Below, one piece after another: positions 37,786 through 64,000 of a stretch of DNA of 64,000 bases. The stretch is taken from positions 1,088,001-1,152,000 of the forward strand of contig CAWCLO010000004.1 of assembly GCA_963796455.1 (NCBI GenBank), written 5' to 3'. Origin of the DNA: Candidatus Sulfomarinibacteraceae bacterium (GTDB lineage Bacteria; Acidobacteriota; Thermoanaerobaculia; Thermoanaerobaculales; Sulfomarinibacteraceae). The notes under the pieces are model-generated. The model was given only the letters and a program-made list of their open reading frames with translations, had not been told where the DNA came from and ran no database searches. Each line of letters opens with the position of its first letter. Position 1 is the stretch's first letter. The position numbers and the translations under genes are program-made.

Positions 37786-37802
37786 CGCTCTTCACCTCAA
37801 GA

Positions 37803-37838
37803 CGGGGCACCTATGCGTCACATTCCTGGGGTGCCCCG
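37803..37838. repeat. Inverted repeat with GGCACC core at the left island border
   Basis: CGGGGCACC...GGTGCCCCG between the convergent corA and 37865-38875 genes; may simply act as a terminator. Confidence 0.5.
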
Positions 37839-37864
37839 AAAAAGAGACAGCCTATGATCCGCAC

Positions 37865-38875
37865 CTAGTTGTGGACGTACGAGACATTCCGTGAACCCTC
37901 GGAGTTGAGATAGATAAGGATTGAAGTACGGGCGACCTCACGGTCATCTTCGACCGCAATAATCGGCCGACCGGTCACCATGCCCTTTCCGTATTTGCCG
38001 TTGACCCGACAGTAAAAGAATACTTTCTGCGGGCTCTCGGCAGCCGCAAGTTCAAGGCTGGGTTCATAACCCTTGTCAGGGGCTTCGGTCATCCCCCTCA
38101 TCGCGATTTCGGGGCGGAAAGGGATCTCGCCAGGGTCGTAGACGACAAAGCCGTCACCCACGGAAGGATGACTGAACCTGATCCAGCCCTGTTCGAGCCC
38201 TTTCTGCGGGTACCGTCGACCCTCCACTTCGAGATCCGACTTTGGGAGTGCCGTTCCATACCCTTCGGCGGCGACGAGAAAGACATGGGGCCAGTCGAAG
38301 TCCCGTTTTTCTCCATTCCTCCAGAGCCACGATTCTCTATTTCCTTGCCTTTTGACCTCGACAACAGAGACCGGGCCCCGCGTATCGGCACGCAAGATCC
38401 CCTGCCGTTTCTCCAGCGGTGCTCTCTCTGCCTGTTTCTCGAGGACGATTTCAATCTCCACGATTTCGGCCCCTCCCGGATTTGTCCGTGGGGTCTCTTC
38501 ATTGAACGAAAATGACCACTGCTCGGAATAGAACCCGGGCTTCAAAAACGAGAGATTGACCGACGAGATGTCGCTCCGCTCGATTCGGAATTCGCCATCG
38601 GCACGAAGGCTCTCCCTGACGATTTCTTTTCTCGCGACGACGTCGCCAAGCTTTCGGAAATAGTAATTGACCTTCACGTCCATCAACGGTTGGCCGTTTG
38701 TTGAAACCACGCGGCCGCGAATATCGATATCGCCCTTCAGCATTTCAGTCCAGGCTTCCAACTGGCGAAGCATTTCTTCCTGATTCGGATACTCCTGCGC
38801 CCAGACCGGGCTGACCAGGAGGAGCAGTAAACTGAGAGCGAATCCAGTCTTCAATTCAACCCAAAATCTGTGCAT
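37865..38875 (-). CDS. Secreted protein, paralog of 56532-57536; putative orphan immunity protein
   Basis: Signal peptide; shares DIRGRVVS, MRGMTEAP, YGKGMVTGRPIIA and YLN-x2-GSRNVSY with 56532-57536. Confidence 0.7.
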   Translation of the reverse strand: MHRFWVELKTGFALSLLLLLVSPVWAQEYPNQEEMLRQLEAWTEMLKGDIDIRGRVVSTNGQPLMDVKVNYYFRKLGDVVARKEIVRESLRADGEFRIERSDISSVNLSFLKPGFYSEQWSFSFNEETPRTNPGGAEIVEIEIVLEKQAERAPLEKRQGILRADTRGPVSVVEVKRQGNRESWLWRNGEKRDFDWPHVFLVAAEGYGTALPKSDLEVEGRRYPQKGLEQGWIRFSHPSVGDGFVVYDPGEIPFRPEIAMRGMTEAPDKGYEPSLELAAAESPQKVFFYCRVNGKYGKGMVTGRPIIAVEDDREVARTSILIYLNSEGSRNVSYVHN

Positions 38876-39038
38876 TTGTTGATTCCCCCTGAGGCCGCCA
38901 GTTTGGTCTATCGATTGGTTTCGATATTGGTGCTGTTCCGTCGAACCTCAAGCTTACTCCAAGAGATTGAAATGAATCGGCTCGGTTCAGGCTGCCGATG
39001 ACCTGTCGGCGACTTTCGGAAATCTGGCACATTGACCT

Positions 39039-40529
39039 TTACGGGCTCCGCCAGTTTTCGTCAAAATCCAACCCGAAATGCTGTTCGACGATGGCCCGGG
39101 CAATGTTTTCCGCCAGCAGTTCGTTTGCGAGATCGGTCAGGTGACCGAAATCGCCGGCAAAGAGATCGGAGAAATAGACCTCAACCCCATCTCTTTGCAC
39201 CAGTTCGGTAAAGAACGAGTTGTCAACATAGATGGATCCTTCATCGTGATCGAAGATCTGTTTGAGCGACTCAACCCTCCGACCCGGGTACTGGACGGCG
39301 ACATGGTCGATTCCGTTACTGTCGAGGATCCCCCGCACCTTTAGATAGTTGCTCCGCGTTCGAGGATTGACATAGTCTTCACGGATTCGCGTTTCGAGGA
39401 CCCTCAGCCTTTCGGCCTCCTCCATTCTCCCGTGCCGTTCACAGAACTCGATCAGCCATGGATAATATCGAGAATCCCCGGGGCTGATACGGTCGACGAT
39501 CTCTCGCAAGTACTGCTCCGCACGATCGATGTTTCCTGCCTTCTCGTGGACCCGGGCAAGAGCTCCCGCGTAGTGGATCTGGGTATTGGTGTCATCTTCT
39601 GAAACGAGATCGTTCCGCAGCTCGAGCAATGATTCGATCGCACAATCCAATTGGCCCAGATTTTCGTACGAAGTGGCGAAACCGTCAACGATGTCGATTG
39701 AAGGTCCGGGGATCGACTCAGCACCCTGGACAAGGATTTGATGCGCGTTGTCCAAATCACCGATTTTCGTGTAAATGAAGAAAAGCTCGACATAAGCTCC
39801 TACCGTGGTCGGTTCAGAAACGAGGATGTCGAGGAGAATGCGCTCAGCTTCCTCAAACCTCGATTTCGAAAAGAGGGTGCGAGCCTGCGACAGCAGGATT
39901 TCGGTAGCCTCATCGGGGCTCGATCGAAAGCTCGGAACCCGCGCGTTCTCACGACCGCCGATTGAACCGGTTTGATCGCTCCAAACGATTCCTTCAGCCA
40001 CCTTCAACCTCTCAACATCGGCGGCGCCGAAAAGCCTTTTCTGAACCCCTACTCGCAGAACCCGATAGAGCTTGTAGATCCTCATCGAGCCATACCATCT
40101 TCCTCTGCCTGGTTCGATCAGACTTCCATAGGTGTGGGTCCTGCCGGCGTCGTTGACACCCATCATCGTGACTACCAGATGAGGCTCATAAGTGGCGATG
40201 TCTTCTTCCAGAAAGGCAAGGATTTCGCCTGTAATAGTGCCGAACCGACCTCCGTTGATGACGCTGACCTGTACTCCGCTGAACTGGGCGTCGAAGATAG
40301 CCTGAAGATATTCGGGATAACTACGGGTCCAGGGCTCACCTATTGTGGTCGACTCGCCGAGGCAGAGAACCCGGAACTCACCGCCCTTTTCGAGCTGAGC
40401 TCGATTTTCCCCCGCCTGCCGGTAGTCCAACGCCCACCCGGCAGCCCGCATGCCCCCTTCGAGCAGGAGGACGGCGAGCAGGATGCCAAAAACAACGAGC
40501 CCGATACGGGCCAACCAGTTGTTACCCAC
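39039..40529 (-). CDS. Membrane-anchored SGNH/GDSL hydrolase with a TPR insertion
   Basis: CLGESTT (block I), NGG, GVND (block III), DFGH (block V); TPR-like helices between blocks III and V. Confidence 0.8.
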   Translation of the reverse strand: MGNNWLARIGLVVFGILLAVLLLEGGMRAAGWALDYRQAGENRAQLEKGGEFRVLCLGESTTIGEPWTRSYPEYLQAIFDAQFSGVQVSVINGGRFGTITGEILAFLEEDIATYEPHLVVTMMGVNDAGRTHTYGSLIEPGRGRWYGSMRIYKLYRVLRVGVQKRLFGAADVERLKVAEGIVWSDQTGSIGGRENARVPSFRSSPDEATEILLSQARTLFSKSRFEEAERILLDILVSEPTTVGAYVELFFIYTKIGDLDNAHQILVQGAESIPGPSIDIVDGFATSYENLGQLDCAIESLLELRNDLVSEDDTNTQIHYAGALARVHEKAGNIDRAEQYLREIVDRISPGDSRYYPWLIEFCERHGRMEEAERLRVLETRIREDYVNPRTRSNYLKVRGILDSNGIDHVAVQYPGRRVESLKQIFDHDEGSIYVDNSFFTELVQRDGVEVYFSDLFAGDFGHLTDLANELLAENIARAIVEQHFGLDFDENWRSP

Positions 40530-40576: not shown

Positions 40577-40630
40577 AAAGGTGCCATGCGCCCCCTGGCA
40601 CCTTTATTGGAACCTGGCACTGATGGCACC
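40577..40630. repeat. Cluster of GGCACC(TTTA) cores of the transposase-end family
   Basis: AAAGGTGCCA-9 bp-TGGCACCTTT(AT), then ACCTGGCAC and TGGCACC. Confidence 0.8.
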
Positions 40631-40642
40631 GATGTCACGCCG

Positions 40643-43600
40643 TCACGGAGAGGTCCCCGACCACCTCGATGTGTCTCCGGATTCGAAATCGTCGACGAAG
40701 ACATTTTCGTTCGCGATAAAAATCACCGCTGCTTCATCACAGGGTCCGGGGCTAAATGTTCTCACCCAATACCATCCCGAGGCAGATGCCGGGATCTCGA
40801 TCGCGGAGGTGGTCTCCCCCGTGATCCACTGGTATCCATCGAAATCGCCATCGACCATCAAGGCTGTGGACTCGATTTTCGCGATCGACCTGATGGAAGG
40901 GGCAACGCATCCGGAATCGGCCGTCATCGCAGTGACCGTTGGGGTCGAGTCGCTGAAAACCATGTTCGTGTTGTTCTCGTGCGGCTCAGTGAAGGTCGAC
41001 ACTGCGAAATCATACGGAGAGCCTGGCTGGAGCCACGTGACCGGGTAGCTGTCGTTGGCCTTTGTCCAGGTCCAACCGGCGGATTCCCAATCCTCGGATC
41101 CAGCGAGTTTCGAGAAGGGCTCGTAGGCTCCGACATCTGCCGAATACGGAATCGGCACCCAGCTCAACCACACCGTGTGGTCGCCCACAGAAACGATCTC
41201 GAGCAGGCCGGGGGCCACTGTCTGCGTGTCTCCCCAATAACCGTCGAAGGTCCCATGCTTTTGGTCCACAAATTCCCTTGTCTCTTCATTCTCAGCTTGA
41301 AGCGCGTTCCAGGACAGCCTCAATCCGCTGCCGTCCCACAACTGCTTCAACTCGGTGATCCGCGATGGAATCTCCCCGGACAGACGGTTGGATCTCAGAT
41401 TCGCGTTCTCAAGCGCCGAGAGGTCGCAAAACTCGTTCGGGATGAGACCGCTCAAAGCGTTTGCCGCCAGGTTGAGATCCGCCAACTGGCTCAGAAATCC
41501 AATTTCGGTCGGGATCGGCCCGGTGAATTCGTTGAAACTGAGATTGAGGGTTCTCAGCGCGCTCAGGTTCCCGAGCTCAAGCGGAACGGTACCGACGAGG
41601 TTGTTCGATTCCAGGTCGATCGTAACGATCTGCGGGACACTGTTGCACCACACTCCAAACCACGAACACTCTGTACCCCGATCGTTGAAATCAATGTCGT
41701 CGATGCGCCAACCTGTACGGTCGGTCCAGTCAGCGCCGTTGGCTGCGTTGTAGAGCGCGATGAGCGTCGCCCGCTCATCCTCCGGAATGGCGGTAGGCGG
41801 TCCCCCCGTGCAACCGAGAACATCCACCGGCACACGGACGAGATTGGTGTCCTCGGACTCTCCGGCAGTTGCCCGAACGAGATAGTGATAGGTCTCAGGC
41901 GGCGAGACCGCATGAACGTCGGTGTAGGTGGTCGTCGGCACAAGCGCAGCGATGCGGTCGGATTCCGAGGGTTGGAAGTCGGGCGAGGTGCTCCGGTAGA
42001 TTCGGTAGGACACGTCGTCGCCGCAAACGGATTCGCCGACATCGGTCCAGTCGAGCCGTACGCTGCAGACGCTATTGGGGAGGAGCACCGCCGAATCCAA
42101 CCCGGAGAAGTCCGGTTCGTCGGCCTGTCCGTCGCAGTCATTGTCTGCGCCGTCGCAGAATTCTGCCGCGCCTGGATACGTCAGTTCTTCCATGTCATCA
42201 CAGTCGTCGTCGCTGATGACATAGCCGAAAGGCGCTGTGCACCCCAGGGTCGGCCGATCCGGATCACCGTGGCCGTCGGAGTCGACGTCCATGAAGAACT
42301 GTTCCGCACAGACGCGGTAGAGTTCCCGACCGTACTCATCATCATCAGCAGAGAACACGAGGTCGTTGCCGACGGTTGGCCCGATGAACGGGGAGGATCC
42401 GGACGGCCCCGGGTTGACCTCTGCCAGCAAGCGAGTGCCTGCCGAGGTGCCGTCCGTGGTCCACAGCTCACTCCCGTGGTCCGGAGTGATGGGATTCAAG
42501 ACCAGGACGCCGTTGACCATTTTCATCCCGAACGGGTCCGAGCCCGTTGGGCCTGGCCAAAAATCAAGCACCAGCAAGGTGCCGTCAGCGGTGCCGTCTG
42601 AGCGCCACAACTCTTCGCCGTGAGCTCCATCGTCCGCAAGGAAGTACACCTCGTCGCCGCCTGCGACGAAATACCAAGGAGACGAGGCGGTGATACCAGG
42701 ATTGATGTCCTTCACCATCCAGGTACCGGCCTCGGTACCGTCACTCCGCCACAGTTCCAATCCCTCCGACACCGTACGGGCTCCGAAGTACGCGATTTCC
42801 CCCACCCTCACGATCTCAGACATGTATATTTCCCACGAGCTGCCTGGGCCCGACCGGATATCTTTCACGATCCACGTTCCGGCCTCGGTGCCGTCGCTCC
42901 GCCACAGTTCCTTGCCCGCAACCCCATCGTCCGCCCAGAAAAGAGCAAAGCCATCCATCGCGGTCAAGTTCCCCGGATCCGACCCTGTCGATCCGGTGGC
43001 GATGTCCTTGACCATCGACGTACCCATTGGCGTACCGTCGGAGATCCACAGTTCCTGTCCATTGGCTCCATCGTCGGCACGAAACAGAACCTGGTTGGCA
43101 AACGGCAGGAGGTACCACGGCCCCCCCGACTCGGGGCCGGGATTGATATCCAAAACCATCTCGGTGCCGGCGGTCGTGCCATCGCTCACCCACAACTCGC
43201 GCCCGTTGGCACCGTCATCGCCGTCGAAGAACTGTCCCCCCGGAAGTCACGGATCCGAAGACGAACGAAGCGCCGACCGGGTTGATGTCCTTGAGCAACG
43301 ACGTCCCCTCCGGAGTGCAATCGGTCGTCCACAGCTCCTGGGAATAAGACCCCGGATGTGGCAACAAAAAAAGCTGGTTTCCCAACAAGGACCGCGCGGA
43401 GGGGCTCGAGTGACCTGTCTCGTGCACGTCGAAAATCAGATTGGTACCGCCCGTTGTCGCATCGCTGGTCCAGGGCTCGGATCCGTGGGGTCCGTCGTTC
43501 GCACTGAAAAAGACATCGCCGTTTCCACAGGTTGCGAAGAAACCGACACCTCGATCGACTGGTCAGCGCCAGCGGGTCAAGCCAACAGTCCCACCTGCGG

Positions 43601-45042
43601 TTCCGTCGGTGATCCAGGGCCGGGTCACCGTCTGTTTCGTCGATGGCGTGAAAGAAAACCGCGGTGCCGGTGCTCAAAAAGCCATGGTTCGAAATCTTGC
43701 TGCTGTCGGGGCCGAGGTCGATATCTTCGATGATCACCGTGCCTTCGGCGGTGCCATCTCGGGGCACCTCCATGGTTCACTCCCATGCGTCCCGTCAGAG
43801 GCGGTGAAAACCACACCGAAGTCGGTCACAACCATCTCTGAGATCGTGGTCCAGTCAGGACCCGGAGTGATGTCTTTAACCATCGCGGTGCCCAGGGTGG
43901 TGCCGTCGGAAGCCCACAGTTCCCGACCCGAGATCCCGTCGTTGGCATCGAAAAAAACAGCGACGGGGTAGCCGCGAGGAGTTCGGGTGAGGAGTTCGAC
44001 GGCCCTTCCCAGACGTCCTTGACCATCGTCGTGCCTGCTTGGCTGCCATCGGATTTCCAGAGTTCGGTTCCATTGACGCCGTCAGATGCCGCGAAGAACA
44101 GCTGAGAATCGAAAACTCTCAAGTATCTTGGGGATGAGCTCGACGAACCACTCCGGATGTCCTTCACCATCAAGGTTCCGGAGTCTGTACCGTTGGACCG
44201 CCACAATTCGGTTCCGTTCGTTCCGTCGGAGGCTGCGAACACGACACCGGACACAAATGCCAGGTTCCGCGATGCCAGGGACGAGTTCGAACCAGGGTTG
44301 GGAGACGAGGGTCGTGCCCGGTCCGGTCCCATCCGAGATCCACAATTCGTATCCGTGTGTCCCGTCGTCCGCCCGTATTATTACCCCGCTGCTGGTCGCC
44401 ACCATGTAGTAAATCGAGGATGAGTCGGCACCGGGTCGGATATCTTTGACCATCACGGTGCCGGCCGCGGTGCCGTCGCTGACCCACAACTCTTTGCCAT
44501 GAGTACCGTCGTCTGCCGTGAAGAACAGCTTGCCCGCTGCTGCAATCGAGTATTGCGGCAGGCCGGACGGACTTCCTTCCAAAATGTCCTTGACCATCCA
44601 GGTGCCGCCGGGCGTCCCGTCAGTGCGCCACAGCTCTCAACCACCTTATCCCATCGTTGGCGGCGAAATAGACGATGTCTCCAATTCGTCTGAACCCAGA
44701 TGGCCCACTGTCGGATGAGCCGGTCGATGTCGAATAAGAGTGTCGTGCCGGCAGCCGTCCCGTCCGTATACCGAGAGTTCAACCCCCTCACGATCGTTCT
44801 GACCGTTGAAGACGACGACGCTGCCTGTCCACCCCAAGGTAGGCGTAATCCTGAAAACGATCCGCGGGGGTGGCCGGCCCAGTATTGATGTCCCGAACCA
44901 AGACCGGCGTTTGTGCACAAAGAACAGGCGTCACCAATGTCAACGCCATCGACGAATGGTGACCGCCACGGGGGCCTCCACCGCCCCGCCACGGCTCCCT
45001 CCTCGCCTGAGCACGGGACTCCGCAGCTGCGTTCACCGTCAA
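40643..45042 (-). CDS. Large secreted ELWxxDGT-repeat protein with Cys/Asp metal-binding motif, FN3, LRR and a C-terminal DGFES motif; several frameshifts in 43200-45000
   Basis: Many ELWxSDGT-x2-GT-x3-KDI repeats across ORFs 44082-44597, 43826-44332, 43186-43773 and 40643-43195; DCDD...YPGAAEFCDGADNDCDG; LxxNxLxGxIP LRRs. Start uncertain. Confidence 0.82.
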
Positions 45043-45116: not shown

Positions 45117-45171
45117 TCAATACCCCCGTACCTGGCACCTTTATGGCACCTTTACCTTTTTGGCACCTTTA
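45117..45171. repeat. Solo transposon-end repeat with stuttered core
   Basis: TCAATACCCCCGTACCTGGCACCTTTAT identical to 56449-56476, followed by GGCACCTTTACCTTTT and TGGCACCTTTA. Confidence 0.92.
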
Positions 45172-46078
45172 TTTTCATTCTCGGCTTGTGTAACTGCAAA
45201 TAGGAGGTAACGATTTTGCTTTCGAAAAGTGTGACCGCCGTTTCGGACGACGTGACCTTGGCGATATGATCCAGTACCGGGGAAAATGCCTCGATGGTCG
45301 GCTCAACCTGATTACTATTCTTGGACAAGCTCTCCGATCCGATGTCCAGCTTTGCAGTCACAGGCGCCTCGTCTCGAGGTCCGACGATTCGCAGCGTCCA
45401 GGTCGGCGCACCATCCATGCTACCCCGGGTCAGGAGGGCGAACGATGTCGAGACATCGTCGCGCAACCGGTAGGCCGCCAAAACATCGTAGCTCACGCGA
45501 CGAGTTTTCTGTTTCAGGAGATAGACTCTCGTCGACAACCACTCAGGATAATAATCCTCACGGTCTGACCGTTCCGGAAATTGGCGGAACGCAAGAATGC
45601 CCGTGACCCGGCCGCGATCCACAATGAAATCGGTTCGATAGCCAACCAGCAACGAGCTTCCGATGCTTTCATCCACGAGAACGTCTGCAAGATGGGCACC
45701 ATTCGAAGACGAAGAAAAGACCCAGAGATGATGAGGGGGCCGTTGCCGGGATCCAAATTGAGTGATGACGACCACCGAACGCTCGTCAGTCCACGTTTTG
45801 CACCGAATCTCCACCGCGCCTGGGAACCCCGGGAGATCGGCGCCGTCCAGCCAGTCCCCGAACGCCCCGAGCACGTCCTCTGTTCCTTGGAAGCAGTCAC
45901 TCTCGATGTCGGCCCAAATCTCAACCCGACGATCACCGTAGTCATGATTCGGGGCGAGATTTTTCAACCTGCCTCTCAGATCCTCGTAACGAACGGAAGA
46001 CACCAGTTGCAGATCGACTGCCTGCGCAGCGAACGATGAGAGCATAATGGAAAAAATGACTATGAAGGGCATCTTCAT
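45152..46078 (-). CDS. Secreted hypothetical protein, putative immunity protein of the upstream transglycosylase effector
   Basis: Signal peptide ending AQA; starts 3 nt after the 46082 stop; its own stop lies inside the end repeat. Confidence 0.6.
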   Translation of the reverse strand: MKMPFIVIFSIMLSSFAAQAVDLQLVSSVRYEDLRGRLKNLAPNHDYGDRRVEIWADIESDCFQGTEDVLGAFGDWLDGADLPGFPGAVEIRCKTWTDERSVVVITQFGSRQRPPHHLWVFSSSSNGAHLADVLVDESIGSSLLVGYRTDFIVDRGRVTGILAFRQFPERSDREDYYPEWLSTRVYLLKQKTRRVSYDVLAAYRLRDDVSTSFALLTRGSMDGAPTWTLRIVGPRDEAPVTAKLDIGSESLSKNSNQVEPTIEAFSPVLDHIAKVTSSETAVTLFESKIVTSYLQLHKPRMKIKVPKR

Positions 46079-46081
46079 CTC

Positions 46082-49000
46082 CTACGGCGGAACCGTTGCG
46101 CCCCAGATGGTTGGGTCTTGAGAAAAGAGGTGCATCTGTTTGAGCACAGCGTTCGCATAGGGATCGCCCGCCCCATTATAGTCACCCAACATCTCCTTGA
46201 TCTGCTGACGAAGTGTCGCTTCCTCGCAGTTGATACCGCAAGCCGATTCGAAGTTCTGAGATTTGTTGAGGATGAAGCTGGCCAGGGCCGTGCCGACCTG
46301 GATGGAAACCGCAGGGTTGAGGACCTGGTCGAACAGATGGCTGTCTTCATCGCCGAAATCGTATTCGATCCTCATCATCTTGCCCCGTTGAGTGGGGTAA
46401 TCATGATTGAGAACTCCGTACTGCATCAACCCGAAGGAACCGGAGAGAAGGTACTGTGAATTGACGGAGTACTGCGGATCGTACAACGAGTTGTCGAAAA
46501 GATTGATCATCAGATGTTCGTGGGAGGTGCCGTCACGCATGAAGTTGAAACCACCACACCCGGTCGCACCCGCGTTGGTCGATATCCACCCGCTGATCGA
46601 AGTGGTGGTGAGATCCCCCGCGGGGAGATTTGCCGTGGGATAGATCTTGCAGTCGGGAACGTCAGCGAGGCCGTTCAGGAGGGTTTCGAGGTCGGCGATC
46701 CCGGCGGGAAGGGTGAGGATTTTTTCGCCTCTCCTGTCGGTGCCCGTACCGTAGCCGATATCTCTCTGCACTTGAGGGTACAGGGTAATCGAGAGCCCGG
46801 CAGGGGCCGCCAAACCCAGGTTCAATTGTGAACTCGCCGGACCGTACTCGATGCTGAAACGCTGCCCCACTGGTGAAGCGGCCGGGTATTCATCCATCGG
46901 GAGGTCGGCAACGCTGCCCGGTTTCCCATGCCGTCGATGCCCGACCTGAATCCAATCGTTGATTCTGGCGCCGAATTCGCCCTGAGGAGGGTTGCAGACC
47001 GGTGGTGGAGCGGAGCCCGCGTACGGTGTGATGCACGCGGGTGAATTCCTCGGCGTTACGGTGAACAACCTCAACGTCTCATTGGTCTGAAGATGACCCG
47101 CAAGACCCGCGTCAAACAGATCGAGCGTCATCGAGCCCGGCGGAATGGAGACCGCCCTGGATGGCGGATTGTTGTTTTCGGCTGTTCTGCCGGCAAAGGC
47201 GTACATGCAATAGGGCTCGACTTCAATGCGGTGGGCATTCGAGGTGTAGACCGAAAGGTCCTCGCACTTTCGGCCGGCCTGGATATCCCACCCTCCTCCA
47301 GCGAAATACTTGAAATCGAAGGTGTACGGCTCGTATTTGTAGGCGTTGGTTCGAATACGGATACTTGCAAAGACACCCGGTGTGGCCTGCCGGGTGGCAA
47401 AACCGCTTTCCTTCAGGATTAAGGCCTTGGCGACATCAGACGGGATTCCGTGACGATCGCAGAAATAGCTGATGATGTTGTCGATATTGAACCGGAGTGG
47501 ATCCGCGGGCGGGTCGGCTCCCACATTGCTGGCGCAATTGGTGTCTTCGGTACCCTGATTCTCCTGCCGACACCAATCGCTCTGGATGCGTTCCCGCGCC
47601 ACACCTCTGAGTTGGACCGTCGCCCAGTCGTTTGGATCCGCAGCGCCATTGAGCCGCACGATCATCGGAACCCGCGGGCTTCCGTAACCATAGGCCCTCA
47701 GGGCCGGATCGGGTGGCAGAAAGCTGTTGGGTATGGGTGGATTCGTTTGATCGAAGAGCGGATGGAGTTGGTCTGATGCGATGTGGAACGCGAGAATGCG
47801 TCCGGCATCGTCGGCGCCATCGGTGATGTTGCGGAAGCTCAAGGTGCGGATAGCGAAGTTCTTGGTGTCGTCGGGATCCAGGTAGTTGTACTGGATCGTC
47901 ACCGAGTTCTCGGCGGAATCAATGAGATACTCGAGCGCGCTGCCGCCGTTGACCGGATCGGTGACCGCTGAAAACCACGGCACAGCCAGCCCCGTTTCGC
48001 TCGGCCCGGCCGCGGGCCAACCATCTTTCCATTCAACAACAATCGGGTAGTCTCCGGCGCCCGGAGCACCGGTCGGCACCCTCTGCACCGCGTAGGTCAG
48101 CCGCCGGTGCTCGCCGAGCGGGATTTCTTTGACCAGGCCTTGGCCGTACATCCGGGCATCAATCCTGTCCATGGCGTCGGCGGCCGATGCGCCACCCTTG
48201 CCAACCTCGATTTTGAAGGCGGTTGCCGAGACCTCGAAATTCGCACAGTCGGTGCACGGTTCGGCCTCGCCGATAATTGCCGTCTTGGTGGGTTTGAGGC
48301 GAATCTCGGCAAGGTGGCTCGTCGAGTAGAATCCGGCCCGCGTTTCTTTGAAATTCACGGTCACGATCTCGGCGTGACCTTCGGCATCCTCGTATCGCAG
48401 CGACAGGTCATCGGGCGGTGACTTACCCGCTGTTGTGATGTACTCGAGCCAATAGGTTTTTTCGAACTCGATCTCTTCATGGGCGACCGGAGAATAATCC
48501 TCCCTCAAAAAGCGAACCCCGGCAACGAAGAAGCTGTACGACTCCCGATCCCACTCGGTGTATTGGTTGATCAACTCGGGTGCCAACGGCTCTGCATAGA
48601 CACGGTAGTACCCCGGTTCCTTTGGTGCCTTGGACACCCACACGGCCGTACCCTTGTACGATTCGGCCGATCCCCGAACCTCCCTGTGTTCGTCTGTACA
48701 TCGAGTGTCGAAGACGGATCTCCGAATGGGGTGATCACGACACCGCCGGCCCCGTCGTCATCGACAGATCCCGCGGTCATTTCGACCTCGAGATACTTTG
48801 TCGGCTTACCGTTGGAGTCAACGAGCAGGTGCGTCGCACTTGACGTCGGGCCGTTGACGTACACATGGTAAGGAATGTTGTAAAACGGATTCTGGGGGTG
48901 AGGATCGCTGAGTTCGTCCACCATCACGGGATGGATTCGGAGCCAGATTCTGTTGCCGAGGCGACCATAAACCCCCTCGCCAGGTTGCATCGGGTAGCTT

Positions 49001-55000: not shown

Positions 55001-55017
55001 GCCGGGTGGGACATCAC
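46082..55017 (-). CDS. Giant (~2,980 aa) exoprotein: DGFES motif, 3 Calx-beta, Ig/FN3/PPC-like domains, C-terminal split SLT lytic transglycosylase; one frameshift near 48670
   Basis: ORFs 48571-55017 and 46082-48643 join by adding one base in a G-run (GRFGGSAESYKGTAVWVSK). Calx-beta TAxxGxDF repeats; ALILKESGF, FGLMQ and GDYNG motifs. Confidence 0.78.
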
Positions 55018-55252
55018 TCCTCCTTTATACCTTGAAAATCCGGAGGATACTTTGCCGGTTTTGCCTTCATGGTGAACGGAGAACCCCTTTCACCCTCACG
55101 AAATCGCCCTCACTGAATACGATATGGCCCGACTCGTCCAACCGCAATGGGCCGATTGAGTGGTTTTTCTCATCAAAGTGAGTGGTTTTGCTCAAGTATT
55201 CGTCTGATTCTTGGACATTATGCGAGCAAAAGGGCCTGTTGTTCCGTAAAGG

Positions 55253-55371
55253 TAAAGGTGCCAGGTACGGGGGTATTGATGTTTTGGCTCACAACGGTTC
55301 CTCCGCTCGCGCGAGGATTGCTGAATCGACTTCATTCATCTTATCGCCGAACTGGCTGTCCTCGACTCTGA
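55253..55371. repeat. 119-bp tandem duplication of the transposon end
   Basis: 55253-55371 is identical to 55372-55490 (end repeat plus the 3' tail of the transposase gene). Confidence 0.93.
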
Positions 55372-56476
55372 TAAAGGTGCCAGGTACGGGGGTATTGATG
55401 TTTTGGCTCACAACGGTTCCTCCGCTCGCGCGAGGATTGCTGAATCGACTTCATTCATCTTATCGCCGAACTGGCTGTCCTCGACTCTGAGGTCAGAGGC
55501 CTTGCTCACCCATCGGCTCGCTGTTTCGATGTACTTGTTAAGGCCGAAAGCCATCTCCTTGACCGAAAACCCATACAATTCGACGCCAAGCCACGCAAGT
55601 GTCATCCGAGCCGTTACGATCGGCTCACTTCGTTTTCGACTCCTGAGGTCATTCAACGAGATGCCGCAAGCTTCTGCACCCAGTCCGAGGAATTGTTCCA
55701 GGTCGACCTTGGGTCTCACCATGACTGTGCTCAGTCCATCCATGCCGATTCTCGGTCGATTCTGGTCAACCGCGATTTCATCTCCACTTGCTTGTTTTGG
55801 AGGACGACCGATTCGCCACCACGGAAGCCGACCTGGGCCCTCCTTCTGCCACTCCTCTGAACGCCCATGCGTCATCGCTGCTCGGTATCCAGCTTTTGCT
55901 CGACTACGGTTTGGATCGAAAGCAAAAAGCGTTTCGTCTCGATCGATGAGTCCCCGTCCGACGGCCCTGCCGATCACCTCCCGATGACCGCTCCATCGGT
56001 ATTTAGCTGGGTTCGGAACGATTCCGGCAGTCACTGGGTTGAGGTGGATGTATGCAATCAGTTTTCTGAGGTATTCAGGATCATCCACGAACCGGGAACG
56101 ATAGCGACCCTGCCAAAACGGACCAAAGACCCGATGACGGCCGTTGTAGCTCTGCGAAAACCGGTGATGGATGGTTCGCATCGAACGCGACAGCGCCACC
56201 TCTCCCATACGAACGGCAAGGTGGTAGTGGTTGGACATGATGCACCAGGCCAGGATCTGAAGATCATCCCGCTTTTTCACCCTGGCGATAAGATCCTCTA
56301 GGCGCTCCGCTTCATCCTCGTTGCGAAAGATGTGCTCACCGCGGGAAACCCGGTTGTAAACGTGATAGATGCCGCCCGCAACCAGAATCCTCGGCCGTCG
56401 TCCCATGTTTTGACCCCACCAGAATGAATTGGTGGAGGGATCATAACATCAATACCCCCGTACCTGGCACCTTTAT
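55371..56476 (-). mobile_element. HUH/Y1 transposase element, copy 1, with perfect 32-bp terminal inverted repeats
   Basis: ATAAAGGTGCCAGGTACGGGGGTATTGATGTT at 55371-55402; its reverse complement at 56445-56476. Confidence 0.9.
55408..56406 (-). CDS. Y1 (IS200-like/RAYT-type) HUH transposase with C-terminal HTH
   Basis: YHVYNR, CIMSNHYHL (HUH), FWQGRY, YIHLNPV and YRWS motifs. Confidence 0.93.
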   Translation of the reverse strand: MGRRPRILVAGGIYHVYNRVSRGEHIFRNEDEAERLEDLIARVKKRDDLQILAWCIMSNHYHLAVRMGEVALSRSMRTIHHRFSQSYNGRHRVFGPFWQGRYRSRFVDDPEYLRKLIAYIHLNPVTAGIVPNPAKYRWSGHREVIGRAVGRGLIDRDETLFAFDPNRSRAKAGYRAAMTHGRSEEWQKEGPGRLPWWRIGRPPKQASGDEIAVDQNRPRIGMDGLSTVMVRPKVDLEQFLGLGAEACGISLNDLRSRKRSEPIVTARMTLAWLGVELYGFSVKEMAFGLNKYIETASRWVSKASDLRVEDSQFGDKMNEVDSAILARAEEPL

Positions 56477-56531
56477 GTGGCACCTTTACCTTTATGGCAT
56501 TTTCTTTGTTTACCTTTACGAAACTATGTTG

Positions 56532-57536
56532 TCAATCGTGGAGGTACGAAACGTTTCGAGATCCGTTGGGATTCAGATACAAAAGCAATGCTGCGCGAGC
56601 AACTTCACGATCATTTTCGAGCGCGATAATCGGCCGACCTGTCACCATACCCTTCCCATAATTGCCCTGAACCTTGAAGTAGAAATAGACCGTCGACGGG
56701 CTTCTTGCGGCCGACAACTCGAGGTTGTCCTGATAACCGGATTCGGGTGCTTCGGTCATTCCTCGCATCCCGATTTCGGGCCATACACCCACCTCTCCGG
56801 GATCGTAAACAACAAAACCATCGCCGTCATCGAGGTCATTGAATCTGAGCCAACCGAGGCCTAGACCCTTTCTGGCACGGCTGTCGCCCTTCTTCTTGAA
56901 CTCTGCGGCAGGCAGTCGGGAGTTTTTGCCCTGGTCCGCTTCAAGATAAACGTACGGCCAACTCAACTCCTGCTTCTTCCCGTCTTTGATGAGCCAGGTT
57001 TCTCCGGCTGTCTGGCGTTTGACACCGACGACCAACACCGGGCCCTGATACTCGGCCCCGAGTATCCCCTCATGTTTCTTCAAAGCAACCGGAATAGGTT
57101 CCTTTTGTAGAACGATTTCGATATCCAATTTTTCAACCCCACCGGGATTTTGTCGGGGAACCTCTGGATGGAATGCAAACGACCATATTTCCGGGTAATA
57201 GCCGTCCTTCAGTATTGAGAGGTTGACAGAGGAAATCCGGCGTCGACTTATTCGAAAATCTCCGTCGACTTCGATGCGCTTATAGTCGATCTTCCTGTTG
57301 GATACTTGATCACCAAGATCCCGAAAATAGTACTTAACCGCAACTTCACTCAACGGCGTGCCGTTCTCGGAGACAACTCGACCACGGATATCGACGTCGC
57401 CAACATGAGAATCTACGATTTCCCGATCAATCTCAAGTAGAGATTCCTGAGATTCTTGGGCGCACGCAGAGCATACGAACAAGAACAGAAAACCCGAGAC
57501 TGGAATCAAGAGGCGTCCAATTACTATCTCCCTCAT
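56532..57536 (-). CDS. Secreted or lipoprotein, putative immunity protein for the upstream hydrolase toxin tip
   Basis: Signal peptide (VCSACA); starts 4 nt after the inferred stop of the toxin fragment; paralog at 37865-38875. Confidence 0.7.
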   Translation of the reverse strand: MREIVIGRLLIPVSGFLFLFVCSACAQESQESLLEIDREIVDSHVGDVDIRGRVVSENGTPLSEVAVKYYFRDLGDQVSNRKIDYKRIEVDGDFRISRRRISSVNLSILKDGYYPEIWSFAFHPEVPRQNPGGVEKLDIEIVLQKEPIPVALKKHEGILGAEYQGPVLVVGVKRQTAGETWLIKDGKKQELSWPYVYLEADQGKNSRLPAAEFKKKGDSRARKGLGLGWLRFNDLDDGDGFVVYDPGEVGVWPEIGMRGMTEAPESGYQDNLELSAARSPSTVYFYFKVQGNYGKGMVTGRPIIALENDREVARAALLLYLNPNGSRNVSYLHD

Positions 57537-57540
57537 CCGA

Positions 57541-58348
57541 CTACTCCGTTCCGGCAGGAATTATGCCGTTTGGTTGTTCATCCGTTTTCACCGAAAAGTT
57601 TTGGTACCACCGCCAAATCTCGGCAGGCGGCCCCTCGAAACCAGCTATGTTCTTTTGGTCGCCAGCCGAAAAGCGAAGAATCAATACTATAGAAGTTCTC
57701 AGCCGAAGACTCACCTTGGTTTATACTCGGCCATCCCAGCGGGTTTGCTAACCTTCTTAAAAACAATGACACGCCACCGTTGGGGAAGTCAGGATTGGCA
57801 TGGCGGGGATTTCGTACCAAAGGTCTGGACGATTCCCTGGTTCATGCACCTGAAAGTCATCTGCTACGGGAACCCTGTTGCTCTGGCTAATCCGCGTCCA
57901 ATTATCCTCCTCACCCTGGGACAATTATCGTTTCCAGGATCCTCGAACTGGGGCAACGTGGTCCTACTAAGAGGAAGGGCGTCGTTGTATTTCATCAGTT
58001 CGAGCACGAAGTCCTCTGAGGCAAAGCTGTTGAATAGCGCATCCATCTGCTCTGATACCGGGTGCCCCTCTTGACCAAACCAGAACGCCCAAGATCCACG
58101 CATTAACTCCTCGACAGAGAAGCTGACGGTGCGCGCTGTAGATTGCCGGGCGCTGATCCCACAGAGTTTCTTCCAAATTGCCGCTTCAACGGAGATCATA
58201 TTGTGGATGAGCTTCTGGTCACTCTCGACTGAATTTAACCGCAAGGCGTCAAGGGTCACGAGATTCCCGAGACTATGAACTAAAAGGTTCACGTTCTCTC
58301 GCTCAGCACCCCATTCACCCAGCACTATTTCTCAAAGAAACTGCTTTG
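57541..58348 (-). pseudogene. 5'-truncated, frameshifted alpha/beta-hydrolase (DUF900/lipase-like) toxin C-terminus
   Basis: VNLLVHSLGNLV nucleophile elbow, SVEAAI, SEDFVL and KEHSW across ORFs 57864-58325 and 57578-57820; begins at the transposon end at 58349. Confidence 0.65.
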
Positions 58349-59448
58349 TAAAGGTGCCAGGTACGGGGGTATTGATGTTTTGGCTCACAACGGTTCCTCC
58401 GCTCGCGCGAGGATTGCTGAATCGACTTCATTCATCTTATCGCCAAACAGGCTGTCCTCGACTCTGAGATCCGAGGCCTTGCTCACCCATCGGCTCGCTG
58501 TTTCGATGTACTTGTTAAGGCCGAAAGCCATCTCCTTGACCGAAAACCCATACAATTCGACGCCAAGCCACGCAAGTGTCATCCGAGCCGTTACGATCGG
58601 CTCACTTCGTTTTCGACTCCTGAGGTCATTCAACGAGATGCCGCAAGCTTCTGCACCCAGTCCGAGGAATTGTTCCAGGTCGACCTTGGGTCTCACCATG
58701 ACTGTGCTCAGTCCATCCATGCCGATTCTCGGTCGATTCTGATCAACCGCGATTTCATCTCCACCTGCTTGTTTTGAAGGACGACCGATTCGCCACCACG
58801 GAAGCTGACCTGGGCCCTCCTTCTGCCACTCCTCTGTACGCCCATGCGTCATCGCTGATCGGTATCCAGCTTTTGCTCGACTACGGTTTGGATCGAAAGC
58901 AAAAAGCGTTTCGTCTCGATCGATGAGTCTCCGTCCAACGGCCCTGCCGATCACCTCCCGATGACCGCTCCATCGGTATTTAGCTGGGTTCGGAACGATT
59001 CCGGCAGTCACTGGGTTGAGGTGGATGTAGGCAATCAGCTTCCTCAGGTATTCAGGATCATCCACGAACCGGGAACGATAGCGACCCTGCCAAAACGGAC
59101 CAAAAACCCGATGACGTCCGTTGTAGCTCTGCGAAAACCGGTGATGGATCGTTCGCATCGAACGCGACAGCGCCACCTCTCCCATTCGAACCGCAAGGTG
59201 GTAGTGGTTGGACATGATGCACCAGGCCAGGATCTGAAGATCATCCCGCTTCTTCACCCTGGCGATAAGATCCTCTAGGCGCTCCGCCTCATCCTCGTTG
59301 CGAAAGATGTGCTCACCGCGCGAAACCCGGTTGTAAACGTGATAGATGCCACCCGCAACCAGAATCCTCGGCCGTCGTCCCATGTTTTGACCCCACCAGA
59401 ATTGGTGGAGGGATCATAACATCAATACCCCCGTACCTGGCACCTATA
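58349..59448 (-). mobile_element. HUH/Y1 transposase element, copy 2
   Basis: End repeats at 58349-58379 and 59418-59445 (28 bp perfect); near-identical to copy 1 and in the same orientation. Confidence 0.9.
58385..59383 (-). CDS. Y1 (IS200-like/RAYT-type) HUH transposase, copy 2
   Basis: 332 aa, only a handful of substitutions relative to 55408-56406. Confidence 0.93.
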   Translation of the reverse strand: MGRRPRILVAGGIYHVYNRVSRGEHIFRNEDEAERLEDLIARVKKRDDLQILAWCIMSNHYHLAVRMGEVALSRSMRTIHHRFSQSYNGRHRVFGPFWQGRYRSRFVDDPEYLRKLIAYIHLNPVTAGIVPNPAKYRWSGHREVIGRAVGRRLIDRDETLFAFDPNRSRAKAGYRSAMTHGRTEEWQKEGPGQLPWWRIGRPSKQAGGDEIAVDQNRPRIGMDGLSTVMVRPKVDLEQFLGLGAEACGISLNDLRSRKRSEPIVTARMTLAWLGVELYGFSVKEMAFGLNKYIETASRWVSKASDLRVEDSLFGDKMNEVDSAILARAEEPL

Positions 59449-59467
59449 TAATATTACTTTAACTGTT

Positions 59468-60241
59468 TTATTGACACCATTTACCGAAAGTACCGTGAAC
59501 ACCCATGTTCAAAAAGATGCCGTCATTATTCAATGATTCGGAATGATCCAATTCTCTGAAATAGTCCGATTCATCTATGATGACCAAATTACTATTTTCG
59601 CGACCTAAATCAAGAAAAAATTTTCCCTCAAAATCATTGTCTAATATTATCCCGGTTCCGTCGTTCAAAATGGAAACAGATCTAACGCGACATTCCATTT
59701 CATTCCAAGGAAATTCAATCCGTCTTAAGATTTCACTTTCCTTGAACTGAATGATATTTACTTGTGTCTCTTTATCTCGATATGGATAGCCAGATATGTC
59801 TATACAAAACCATGTATCGTTAACTCTAACAAAGCTATCCCACAACTGCACGGGATTATGCACCGTCAAAAAGGGAAGTGGAACTACGTTCCCGTTACGC
59901 TGAATTGAATACTTTGCATTTACGAAATCTGAACGCCACATTTTCCCATCAACAGCCAATACATACCGCCCGCGTTCCAGCACTGTTACCACAACTCTTT
60001 CATCTATTCCGTTTGACTTCTTACAAACAGCCATCTCAAAAACGTGTTCTTTTTCGAATTCTGGAGAACAACCACAATAAACTGAAACGAGAATAAATAT
60101 TCCAAAAAAATTACTGAATATCCAAAAAGAATTAGATAAATTTTCGAAAACACGATCAAACTTTTGATGAGGTTCAACAGATATTAAATCGACAATATTT
60201 GAATTCAGAATCATTCTAAACCTTTGGTTAGATATATTCAC
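59468..60241 (-). CDS. AT-rich hypothetical, putative lipoprotein immunity protein of the RHS toxin
   Basis: GTGA overlap with the RHS stop; hydrophobic stretch then VYCGC; visibly much more AT-rich than the window. True start may be internal. Confidence 0.6.
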   Translation of the reverse strand: MNISNQRFRMILNSNIVDLISVEPHQKFDRVFENLSNSFWIFSNFFGIFILVSVYCGCSPEFEKEHVFEMAVCKKSNGIDERVVVTVLERGRYVLAVDGKMWRSDFVNAKYSIQRNGNVVPLPFLTVHNPVQLWDSFVRVNDTWFCIDISGYPYRDKETQVNIIQFKESEILRRIEFPWNEMECRVRSVSILNDGTGIILDNDFEGKFFLDLGRENSNLVIIDESDYFRELDHSESLNNDGIFLNMGVHGTFGKWCQ

Positions 60242-63200
60242 CTTCTCTGTGCCAGGGGATACCCATAACTTGTGGATGGAATTGATTGGCCAACGACCTC
60301 AACGGCAGAACCGAACCCGGAAAATTCTGCCCCACCCGTCCTCAAACTCTGGACAAAACGATGTTGGATTTTCGCGTGTCTGTTAAAAGATCGGATCCAG
60401 CTAGCCGGTGCACGCTCTTCCAGGTAAATGAAGGATTCGTTGGGAAAGCGAAGTCGTATCCGAGTCTTCCAAGCCAAAGACCTCGCATCTTCATTGCCTT
60501 CTACATCAAAGGTCGTGCGAACATCCTTTTCAATATGTGACCACCAGGTAGGTACACGCCCGCGTGCGATCGCCGCGCTCTCCAGGAAATTATAGGAAGT
60601 CCTGGCAGCCTCAAGGGCCTTTTCTCCCGCTCGATAGGGCTGATCCGGAGCCTGATTGTACAATCCTCCGCGAGAAATAGAAATCGCCACGGAACCAGCA
60701 ATCCCGTACCTAAGATCGAAAAAGTGGCCGATCCCGCCTCTAGGATTTAGTAGTCCCGTGAAACCCTCGTGTGCCCAGGTGTCCGCCCATGAGTGCAAGG
60801 CAATTCCTAAACTTATTAGGTTTCCGGTTCGCTCCGCTCTTATGAGGTTCAGTTTCGCAATAGGATTTGCCCTTTTCACAGGATGCCATTCAGGAGAGAC
60901 AAAGTGGAAAGAATAGAGGCGCCCTGGTAGGGATTCTAGCGAGCCCCAAAACAAAGGCAAAGGGCCTCCACCGGGATACGGTCGGGTGGTTGCGGAATCG
61001 TCAACAAACTGCGAAGCCCAGGATATTTGCGCCGCTTCATCTTGAGAGAAATCAGCTTCGCGAGCCAAGTAGTAGACAGCATAATAGTGAAAATCTATCG
61101 CATAGAGTCCTGAAGGATCCACAAAGTTGTTTGCGCTGAATTCAATCCATTTGTAAGGGTTCTGTGAAGAGTGCTTTACCGGATCTCTTCCAATAAACCC
61201 GACCTCTCCGGAACTCCACCGCGCCCGGTAGTAATACAACCCCAACTCCTCATGCCACGTCCGCCCCTGGAAGAGACTGGTGAGGCCGTAGCGGCTCTGG
61301 GCGAGCGGCGTGCTGTGGTCGGGTTTTGAGTATGCAACGAAGGTCTGATCAGTGAAGGTCGCGATGTGGGTGAAGTCGATTGACGGAAAGGCTACCGCAT
61401 TCGGAGTAGTTGCCAGGTCCTCCAGATTGATCTGGGTGACCTCGTAACGCTGCTGCGGATACCACGGAGCCCCAGTCTCGGCTGTCCACTTGAAGAGGTT
61501 TCCGCCCAGGCGTTCGCTTGATCCGGCGACGGCGTTCTCTCCCCGGTTCACAACGATTGCATCGGCAACATCCAACCCGTCAACCGGGACAACCGGTTCG
61601 TCGAAGAGGACAAGACGCCATCGGGGGCATCGAGCACCGCAAGGACCGCCGGCGGCGAGGCATCCATCAAGGTCTCATACGTCTGCGGGTCACGTCCGGT
61701 GAAGCTCAAGATCAAGCACCCACATTTCGTTTCCACTTCGATCGGTCAGACCGTCCAGGTGGAGTGCATAGCTCAGGCCGGTCTGAATCGTAGCGCCGCC
61801 AGGGTGATTCCCCGTCTGATCATCATCAAGCGTCACCACGAAATCGACGGCCTCTCCCCCATCGGGAGTCAGGGTCGCCGTCACGTTTTCAAGGTTGTCG
61901 TCGAGCAACTCGTCGAATCCGATCTCAAACACTTCTTCCCTCACGATGTCGGCCGTCGGACGCTGGCCGTCACCGGTCCACGCGACCCGGGTGGCTCGCG
62001 GTGGGGTGTCGTCCTCGGCGGAGAGGCGCGGCGTGCCGTCGGTCTGGTACTCCACTCCGCTCGACGATTCGGCCCTCGCCGTCAGTCAGAAGCTGAACGC
62101 TGCCGAGAAGATCGGTGATCGGCCACAGGGTTTCATCAAGCTCTCCGTCGGCATCGGTATCGACCTGTTCAACCGCCAGGTCATCGATCCAGCGACCCCA
62201 GTGGTGGCGGCGATCGAGCTGCCAGTCAGTGCCACCAGCTTCCTGCACGTACTCCGCTACGACCTGGTCGCCGTCATGGAGATAGACCCGACTATCGCCA
62301 GCAGCTCGCCACTTTGCCACCAGCCTCCCCAGGGGATCGACAATCAGCTTGGTCGTGGCGGAGTCCTGGTCGACGCCGACCAGCCGATCTCGCCAGTCAT
62401 GGCTGAAGGTTTCCGTGGATATAGCGGTTCCGCCCTGCATCAGATGTCGTGCCTCCGAGATTTCCGTTGTCATCCCAATCGTAGCTGAAGTTACCCGAGG
62501 CCACGACCTGGTGGAGACCATCGGAGTCGTGGTCCGGCTGGGCGTCGAACTGAAATCCATCGGAAACCCTGCGCCGGGACTCGAGTTCATCGACCTGATT
62601 GACGGTCCACCACTCCTCTATCTGCCGCGGTTCGAGACCTTCGGAGTAAGCAACCAGATCACCGTCGATACCCGCCACTGCAGGTAGGTTCTGGTTCAGG
62701 TTGCTCTCGAGGTGGCCTACACCGTCGTAGTGGAATTGCTCAATGAGTCCTCCGAGTGTCCTCACGTTCTTTGCTGGCGCCGGAGGCTCGCGTTCGGTCC
62801 AACCAAAGGCCAGCCGGTGGACCGGCGCCGAGATCACGGAATCCCGCGCCCCATAACGCCGGTTCGTCACCTCGATGGGCCTGCCCTCTCCGTCATAGCT
62901 CATAGGCCGTTGCGAGGCCGTTTGCCCGCTCGATTCCGATGAGCCGTCCACCCGCGTAATCCGCACCCCAGAGCTGCTGTCTCGCTAACCGTAAGCGAAG
63001 TCAGCCGATCGCCATCGAATCGTACCCCCGAACAAGGTTCGCCAAGCTAGTCGGGCATGCCGACGGATACCATGGACGATTGGCATCGTCGAAATACTCC
63101 GGCTCAAGGTCACGCTCGCCAAAGCCCAACACCGGCAACCCAAGGCTTTCCGAGAGCTGATTGCCGACACTGTCCCATGTGAAGCCGAGACGCACATCGT

Positions 63201-64000
63201 TGTCGAAGGCCGACGTCAAATGACCGATCTCGTCGTAGTCGAAGTCCACCGTTCCGCCCGGTTGGTCGGCCGAGGCGGTCACGGTATCGAGACGCCCGGT
63301 GGTTGTATCGATCGCAAAGGTCACGAGGGTTTGGTCAGCCCTCTTGATCCCGGCCATTTCACCATCCGGGTGGTAGGTGAAGCTTCGCTCCGAATCATCC
63401 GGGTAGACGATCGCTTTGAGACGGCCGTTCTTGTAGTAGCGGTATGTGGTGGTGTTGCCTTCGTGATCTTCATAGGCCACCAGATTGCCGCGCTCATCGT
63501 AGGTTCGGGTGATTTCCGCACCGTCGGGGCGCGTTTCCGTGACGACCCGACCAAGATCACCATAGGTCCATTTCGTAAGCCGATGGGTCGCCTGCTCGCC
63601 CTCGACGCTGGGGTTTGAGTCCGGCGTCAGCACCCTTTCCTTGCGCCCGAGACTGTCATAGAAGGTGGTTGTGGTTCGCCCACCGGGGCCTGTCACCTGG
63701 TGTACCCGACCCTGCTCGTCATATACGGTCGTCGTCGTGAGGGCCCACGAAGTCTCACCTTCATCAAAGCTCACCGTTCGCGTACGGACCTTGCCGTCCG
63801 GGTAGTACCCGGTCTCGACAATTGATCCGTCCGGGAGCGTACGCAGTATTTCCCGTCCCGCATCGTCGTAGTCGAAGGACGTGCGCCGGTCGAGCGGATC
63901 TTCGATCCACTCCACAAGACCGAGCTTGGGCCCACTGGTTTCAAAGTACTTGGTTGTAGTCGTCAGCACCTCGTCCGCATCCGGATCGTAGGCCTGCCCA
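60238..64000 (-). CDS. RHS/YD-repeat polymorphic toxin (5' end outside window, several frameshifts) with a DUF6765-like C-terminal domain
   Basis: YD repeats in 63001-63969; PITDLLGSV; FQGR...GLYYYRARW...RDP...NNFVDPSGL core; tip IDFHYYAVYYLA...SQFVDD...LHSWADTWAH. Confidence 0.88.

Follow-up and report, generated by a model that had tools for sequence, protein, structure and literature searches.

Single transposon ends at the module borders of an RHS toxin locus in Candidatus Sulfomarinibacteraceae: a TIRtron transposase as a candidate joining enzyme

The stretch of Candidatus Sulfomarinibacteraceae DNA considered here, 64,000 nucleotides long and called the window (G000:C4:1088001-1152000), comes from a genome (G000) assembled to 5.0 Mb in 10 contigs and estimated to be 90.5% complete, and it holds two copies of a small transposon set among the genes of a polymorphic toxin array. 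Judged by its sequence, the element is a TIRtron (also TIRYT, subclass 2.1.2), a known type with terminal inverted repeats (TIRs) and a Y1 HUH transposase carrying a DnaA-like helix-turn-helix (HTH). We think it probable that this transposase splices single ends of the element onto unrelated DNA, and so would make the non-homologous junction when toxin modules are captured by a process anchored elsewhere by homology; it is likely to be the enzyme that builds and trims the array of toxins and partner genes. The anatomy of the element, the position of its ends, the duplication of those ends, the absence of a target consensus and of target duplications, breakpoints that fall at ends and an enrichment behind RHS genes were observed directly. 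A known element, it bears a reaction signature not described before and is strongly tied, across phyla, to polymorphic toxin arrays. The crowding at RHS genes, the one-ended junction signature and the breakpoints at TIRs were not found in print in the literature searched, which took in few subscription papers and neither supplements nor figures.

The two transposases, each of 332 amino acids (aa), are 97.9% identical (97.3% at the nucleotide level), and inverted repeats of 34-37 nt bound each gene. They match PF01797 and NF047646 and have the HYH and YIHLNP motifs, corresponding to the HuH and Y---NP of the Y1 core; a C-terminal match to PF08299 (Bac_DnaA_C) is below the cut-off here (E 6e-4) and above it in a relative. 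A 12-mer of the repeat occurs seven times in the 5.0 Mb genome, six of them inside the window, where the true TIRs lie at 45117, 55253, 55372, 56442, 58349 and 59415. The TIR has no fold (z +1.9 and +0.7) and hence is not a repetitive extragenic palindrome (REP), and the REP-associated tyrosine transposase (RAYT) acting at REPs of the preliminary description has to be replaced by a TIRtron. TIRYT matches were present in 52 of the 61 genomes searched. Where both flanks were present, the TIR of most loci opens with GGT(G/A)CC, and the part after it is specific to the type and tracks the transposase tree (a quick tree of 54 proteins). Bare GGCACC has 89 matches in the window, hence is not diagnostic, and a loose TIR motif turns up in 328 of 1250 4-kb windows; both are too common and were not used as statistics. 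A second TIRYT type, 38% identical and with its own TIR, was seen at G000:C8:150831-151840; beyond it come AT-rich DNA and, where the contig ends, a tRNA-like sequence.

Every credible gene from 37865 onward lies on the minus strand, as first described and as confirmed by gene and family calls. Along that strand an end, or a stub of one, follows the stop codon by 0-19 nt in five of six modules (19 nt for the 257-aa gene, 13 nt for the 334-aa gene and 8 nt for the ELWxxDGT gene, while the 308-aa and 496-aa genes have their stops within end or stub sequence); the sixth border, that of the 336-aa gene (37803-37838), is weak. The repeat reported earlier at the module borders is a true TIR or a stub at most of them, but not convincingly at the sixth. 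The gene stop said to lie inside a repeat is indeed there, the 308-aa gene ending in a stutter, that is, a short copy of an end.

The way in which ends are joined to other DNA was read from the outer junctions of TIRs in the fetched loci, 150 distinct ones in all, of which 18 had a counterpart free of the end. The break is 3-5 nt outside GGTRCC in nine of these 18 comparisons, and the other nine have 6-15 extra nt, mostly stutter. Stuttered ends were counted in 24 of 76 cases against a background of 5%, and tandem end copies span from 6 nt to 381 nt. No target-side consensus appeared at the compared junctions, and a target duplication of at least 3 nt was found in none of 38 whole elements. 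Contigs from three other runs depart from the window at 58347-58349 into other flanks, and in one contig from another run the leader continues past 55245 without a TIR. Circular or re-ordered junctions at the repeat, which had been suggested, were not seen in the runs, where only small-share contigs of other strains were available. These sequences make it likely that ends join unrelated DNA one at a time, by one-ended joining. Of the HUH-driven, integron-like array of the preliminary description, it is supported that ends of the element mark the borders and that breakpoints fall at the end, but the junctions are of an end to random DNA and not of repeat to repeat.

Related loci provide further breakpoints at ends. 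G008:C21 carries an RHS-DUF6765 gene with a tip 73% identical to that of the window, then a gene of 256 aa (60% identity with the window's 257-aa gene) and a stack of stubs. It shares 1154 bp at 99.3% with G024:C25, in which the shared segment begins at the outer end of a TIRtron and 75 nt inside the toxin 3' end, leaving the putative immunity homologue of the 257-aa gene orphaned behind an unrelated RHS gene and its partner. In G014:C6 an intact DUF900 hydrolase is followed by a 335-aa partner and a TIRtron of the same clade; the hydrolase match in the window begins at residue 204 of this intact protein, 3 nt from a TIR, which bears out the gene truncated at a repeat noted earlier. Homologues of the 334-aa gene have different TIR types behind them in G000 and G008. 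G096:C4 and G046:C4, from two phyla, contain repeated units in which a TIR is followed by ~80-90 nt, an RHS core, a tip that varies from unit to unit and a partner, with unit cores 92-93% alike; the second TIR of G046:C4 begins ~20 nt past the stop of the previous partner, and one G096 partner is Imm53. Stub-like sequences stand behind four partner genes of G100:C45, one by strict scan and three by eye. At the same site in G001, G006 and G024 (L069, L070, L119), upstream of an RNase R-like/TetR gene cluster, piles of TIRs were seen with cargo that differs between the three genomes, possibly a fixed platform. Repeated units of 35-45 nt, possibly an array, adjoin a TIR junction in L094 (G020:C26, ~12740-14000).

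The association with RHS genes was counted in a close set of 18 well-assembled genomes (G000 and 17 relatives), whose 31 above-cut-off RHS cores form 26 loci, one sub-cut-off match having been dropped. A TIRYT match lies within 10 kb at 15 of the 26 loci, with 0.63 expected by random placement; the element is downstream at 1.0-5.2 kb in 14 of the 15 and mid-array in the other, and two more loci have solo TIRs ~20 nt past the last open reading frame (ORF). Counted by element, an RHS core is within 10 kb for 25 of the 93 TIRYT matches, as against 4 of 149 matches in five other sets of transposases (other Y1 0/28, IS110 2/43, rve 0/38, Y2 1/24, DDE_Tnp_1 1/16). Fisher's test gives 2e-8 by element and 0.003 by locus, values that both overstate the case, because the genomes are kin and the matches cluster. 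The RHS-adjacent transposases are spread over 10 separate branches with different TIRs (quick tree, with RHS labels placed by hand from maps). A scan of GTDB found an RHS core in 9 of 80 TIRYT loci (Verrucomicrobiota, Gammaproteobacteria and Acidobacteriota), and in all nine the RHS gene is aimed at the element, with a TIR 5 to ~590 nt past the last toxin or partner ORF. The expected count is 0.44 for the 50 of these loci whose genomes were counted, which were picked mostly by length and so as to include all nine with RHS genes. Enrichment at toxin/immunity borders, a supposition until now, is strong at RHS loci in relatives and in other phyla. Longer Y1 transposases like those of subclass 2.3 also adjoin RHS/immunity genes (L216:7108-8073, L217:8853-9818 and L220:5398-6429), and have their own end-like stubs directly past stop codons.

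In the mechanism that we propose, the HTH would bind the type-specific subterminal repeat, and the HUH/Y1 core would nick ~4 nt 5' of GGTGCC and remain bound to the 5' phosphate of the end. A free 3'-OH, from a nascent strand or from incoming DNA, would then resolve the phosphotyrosine, a step that TnpA-REP carries out with the 3'-OH of an arbitrary oligonucleotide (PMC8266576; this and the other papers are cited for the searched part of their text). The source of the 3'-OH would set the outcome: end duplications (6-381 nt) if it came from inside the element, deletions if from the flank and capture if from foreign DNA. An incoming toxin tip with its immunity gene would recombine by homology in the RHS core or a shared leader, its far end would be joined to the resident TIR, and the old toxin would be cut or displaced downstream with its immunity gene retained. 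We propose that deletions halt at immunity stop codons because immunity genes are essential; the TAA of an end could provide a stop codon. At this locus an older giant-hydrolase-partner module would have ended at TIRtron A before a new giant RHS-DUF6765 module, with the common leader of 250-310 bp, arrived upstream, and the right end of element B would have been joined within the hydrolase, with most of the old effector lost and the partner kept. The SLT-like, ELWxxDGT, GDSL/TPR and 336-aa modules would be older layers, each trimmed to its stop by an end. Such a history would match the displacement model of PMC5361080. More tentatively, polymorphic toxin loci in several phyla may have co-opted TIRtrons as a widespread, integron-like capture system based on an HUH enzyme. 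A TIR fused to the RHS core or leader would serve as a standing acceptor to which the Y1 enzyme would ligate any DNA with a free 3' end, and modules would be added in order with the old immunity kept. Were this so, the enzyme would ligate DNA ends independently of sequence, with only one of the two ends defined.

A number of observations weigh against capture by the transposase. As many as 68 of the 93 TIRYT matches are more than 10 kb from any RHS core, and 11 of the 26 RHS loci have no nearby TIRYT gene (two of these have the solo TIRs). In other phyla 20 more RHS loci were scanned, and a strict TIR match stands at a module end in only five of them, with stub-like text visible by eye in some of the rest; no TIRs were found in the multi-tip arrays of G088, G080, G101:C14 and G047:C12. 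G000 has 38 TIR-family stubs of many types (7 in a shuffled sequence), often bordering ordinary accessory genes. Sulfatase, peptidase and cupin genes are among the cargo found between TIRs in relatives, and the ELWxxDGT and GDSL/TPR modules of the window are not toxin-like. The control transposases carry target preferences of their own. Two independent insertions followed by erosion would give an identical end-gene-end picture, and active capture and passive erosion are inseparable from genomes alone. Many solo TIRs of other TIRtron types were seen at the borders of accessory genes in flexible regions of G000 (C4:626000-690000, C6:1-7600 and C6:265900-282300), as were a 293-aa gene between two outward-facing ends (C4 664310-665304) and a 500-bp TIR pair without a transposase (C6:4908-5410).

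Many of these points suit the main rival explanation, which we regard as less likely: selfish TIRtrons land by preference, or survive best, in dispensable DNA behind toxin/immunity genes and at older stubs, one-ended deletions chew the flanks until an essential immunity gene is reached, and orphan modules arrive by ordinary homologous or illegitimate recombination. It relies on the same one-ended chemistry without capture, and it accounts for the stop spacing of 0-50 nt, the truncated neighbours, the piles of different TIRtron types, the stubs at non-toxin genes and the arrays without TIRs; IS66-, IS110- and IS21-like elements are, moreover, also inside some of these arrays. Against it, other transposases are seldom near RHS genes (the 4 of 149 above), AT-richness is not the attractor, and tandem TIR-core units with different tips are not readily produced by erosion. 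AT-rich targeting as the sole cause was rejected separately, with outer flanks mostly of 51-66% GC and a stub near only 3 of 14 low-GC regions of G000. Capture is favoured over erosion by the TIR-core units that stand in tandem and by how rarely the control transposases lie near RHS genes.

It is very improbable that a single ancestral TIRtron-RHS linkage spread as whole islands by horizontal transfer, with borders due to inheritance. The same tip, immunity gene and stub stack do recur in G008, G024 and the more diverged G000, and the order of hydrolase, partner and same-clade element is also that of G014, but at least 10 transposase branches with different TIRs and unrelated tips in three phyla largely refute such a history, as the tree has it, and homologues of the 334-aa gene precede different TIR types in G000 and G008. 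An assembly artefact, in which long-read or consensus errors of a frameshift-rich metagenome assembly make the duplicated ends and truncations, is scarcely credible: several window genes are split by frameshifts, but the same end position and stutters come back in contigs of other runs and across dozens of assemblies made independently, and elements A and B differ at ~3% of sites. The frameshifts themselves are probably long-read errors.

The features of the array are collected in Table 1.

Table 1. Array features, in window positions
Feature	Position	Strand	Remark
GC-rich hairpin in the gap between corA and the 336-aa gene	37803..37838	.	possibly two decayed end stubs, weak
336-aa secreted protein	37865..38875	-	54% identical to the 334-aa partner
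Degenerate end stub	39025..39046	-	supplies the stop (TAA) of the 496-aa gene
GDSL-like/TPR membrane protein (496-aa gene), not toxin-like	39039..40529	-	family search
Three stacked short end stubs and one reversed stub	40577..40635	-	begins 8 nt past the ELWxxDGT stop
ELWxxDGT-repeat/leucine-rich-repeat exoprotein gene, frameshifted pieces	40643..45000	-	TIGR04534
27-nt solo TIR and stuttered end copies	45117..45175	-	308-aa gene has its C-terminus and stop here
308-aa protein with signal peptide, predicted to partner the SLT-like tip	45152..46078	-	no family match
Giant secreted Calx-beta protein, two ORFs (2148 + 853 aa), SLT-like tip at end	46082..55017	-	
Promoter/leader block cut at TIR; candidate homology anchor	54933..55245	-	sequence comparison
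6-nt stutter and exact 119-bp tandem copy of TIRtron A right end	55247..55371	-	
TIRtron A	55372..56475	-	TIRs 55372-55405, 56442-56475; transposase 55408-56406
Stuttered end copies, up to 13 nt from the 334-aa stop	56476..56518	-	
334-aa signal-peptide protein, predicted periplasmic immunity partner of hydrolase	56532..57536	-	
DUF900 alpha/beta hydrolase, 3' piece, frameshifted, cut at TIR	57540..58346	-	
TIRtron B	58349..59449	-	TIRs 58349-58382, 59415-59448; transposase 58385-59383
257-aa low-GC gene, predicted immunity	59468..60241	-	stop 19 nt from element end
RHS core and DUF6765 tip, predicted toxin	60238..61575	-	
RHS/YD repeats in pieces	61690..64000	-	giant gene runs on to G000:C4:1178102

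The right-hand end has the features of an RHS polymorphic toxin locus, namely YD repeats, an RHS core, a variable tip and a small downstream partner, and the giants start with signal-peptide-like sequences; no type VI secretion system (T6SS) sheath gene was found in the 90.5% of G000 estimated to be present. Four in-line ORFs (2700, 1866, 2507 and 1997 aa) fill the 27 kb of G000:C4:1151004-1178102, with RHS at the end, and are likely to be one giant secreted protein split by frameshifts. This RHS giant, which lies upstream on the contig, and the gene at 55017 have a leader in common (a match of 90-91% to the leader block of Table 1), and a third copy of the leader was seen at G000:C4:1181625-1181771. 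The closest named homologue loci are in metagenome-assembled genomes of Holophagae/Sulfomarinibacteraceae.

The 853-aa tip of the Calx-beta giant keeps ES, GLMQ and YNG motifs in its homologues (atlas 0.91) and gave no Pfam match above the cut-off and no PDB match, the best Pfam SLT score being E 0.017 in one homologue, under the cut-off. A single-sequence structure model was unusable (pLDDT 32), and one homologue search returned no longer homologue. The SLT-like call is therefore one at the level of motifs: the giant SLT effector first described keeps its conserved motifs and has no family match above the cut-off. An insertion of ~330 aa splits these motifs in the window (46085-47506); 14 representatives of the split tip were seen, one of them the C-terminus of a 5864-aa protein.

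By its sequence, the 336-aa gene is likely to be an older retained partner or immunity gene. The hairpin beyond it is stable (z -4.3), its tie to the TIRtron is weak, and it was absent behind corA in 15 relatives; that it is a terminator seems doubtful, a U-tract 3' of the hairpin being absent on both strands. The usual neighbours behind corA in relatives are an antiporter and a superoxide dismutase gene, and in G000 those neighbours are on other contigs; the corA-anchored comparison was uninformative because the site is not an orthologous one. In L056 (G018) a degenerate TIR of the window's type was seen past the corA stop, and an ORF with a Peptidase_S74 chaperone domain lies in the exoprotein-rich stretch left of corA (window 30351-31637).

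TIR-flanked Y1 transposases (TIRYT, TIRtrons) were described in PMC3733652, TnpA-Y1 subclass 2.1.2 with its Bac_DnaA_C tail in PMC6006769, and RAYT group 1 is the corresponding class in PMC5581495. The elements here share with these a Y1 HUH core with Y---NP, a C-terminal Bac_DnaA_C-like HTH, a length of ~330 aa, long TIRs in place of REP hairpins and families of solo TIRs. Their core GGT(G/A)CC is unlike the TIRtron consensus GGGGWSAS, which distant relatives do have and which is found in the majority of TIRs, the others being unrelated (PMC3733652). The searched text of the three papers gives no mechanism, end position, stutters or link to RHS. Subclass 2.1 is the second largest Y1 subclass, found in 14.9% of strains (PMC6006769), and no reaction or function for it appeared in the literature found. 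Group 1 RAYTs were counted as single-copy and domesticated (10.1101/2021.07.10.451892), which the duplicated elements here do not fit, and RAYT and Rhs were handled separately in 10.1101/2024.07.17.603846. With the RAYT-REP/REPIN systems (TnpA-REP groups 2 and 3; PMC8266576) they share the catalytic family and, as proposed, a 5'-phosphotyrosine resolved by a 3'-OH; in contrast to these, the TIRs have no GTAG foot and no hairpin, the gene is not single-copy but present in two mobile 97% copies with only seven repeat copies, and the break is at a fixed end instead of at CT/CA near a hairpin.

The locus also touches the question of how Rhs/T6SS toxin-immunity arrays form their non-homologous junction. 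Such arrays have been proposed to grow by homology-facilitated illegitimate recombination, and no evidence for an integrase was found (PMC5361080); the present one is like them in its candidate homology anchor on one side, displaced toxin, kept immunity gene and integron-like order, and unlike them in that the non-homologous junction is a transposon end. Two further papers (PMC10539506; 10.64898/2026.07.13.738213) take up the exchange of Rhs genes by homologous recombination and, in other places, insertion sequence (IS) sites and Xer systems, a transposase being unmentioned in the searched text of both. Within the literature searched, no report ties TIRYT to Rhs or immunity arrays, and no enzyme has been proposed for adding toxin/immunity modules while keeping the old ones. 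The locus ties the question of the array junction to that of subclass 2.1, and yields an exact predicted cut site, strand and substrate; an enzyme joining a defined end to any 3'-OH would, if confirmed, be a new kind of DNA-joining activity.

Unlike classical DDE IS elements with TIRs, the elements show a target-site duplication of 3 nt or more in 0 of 38 cases. One-ended transposition of IS91/ISCR and gene capture by Helitrons resemble the proposed reaction in having an HUH transposase that moves adjacent DNA from one end. Those are rolling-circle elements of the Y2 kind, whose ori and ter ends are unlike each other, and the targets of IS91 are tetranucleotides, whereas the enzyme here is a Y1 with two equal TIRs and no target consensus. 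The rAID systems of Bacteroidales (PMC12247911) and integrons have in common with this array an enzyme gene, co-oriented cassettes, antagonism cargo and a motif at borders, which here follows five of six module stops and is joined to random DNA. Among the 20 array ORFs scanned a tyrosine recombinase was absent, and the array differs further in having no fixed platform and in that toxin tips and ordinary genes are bordered as well. In rAID systems and integrons, tyrosine recombinases act at paired sites; here, an HUH enzyme would join one specific end to a random partner.

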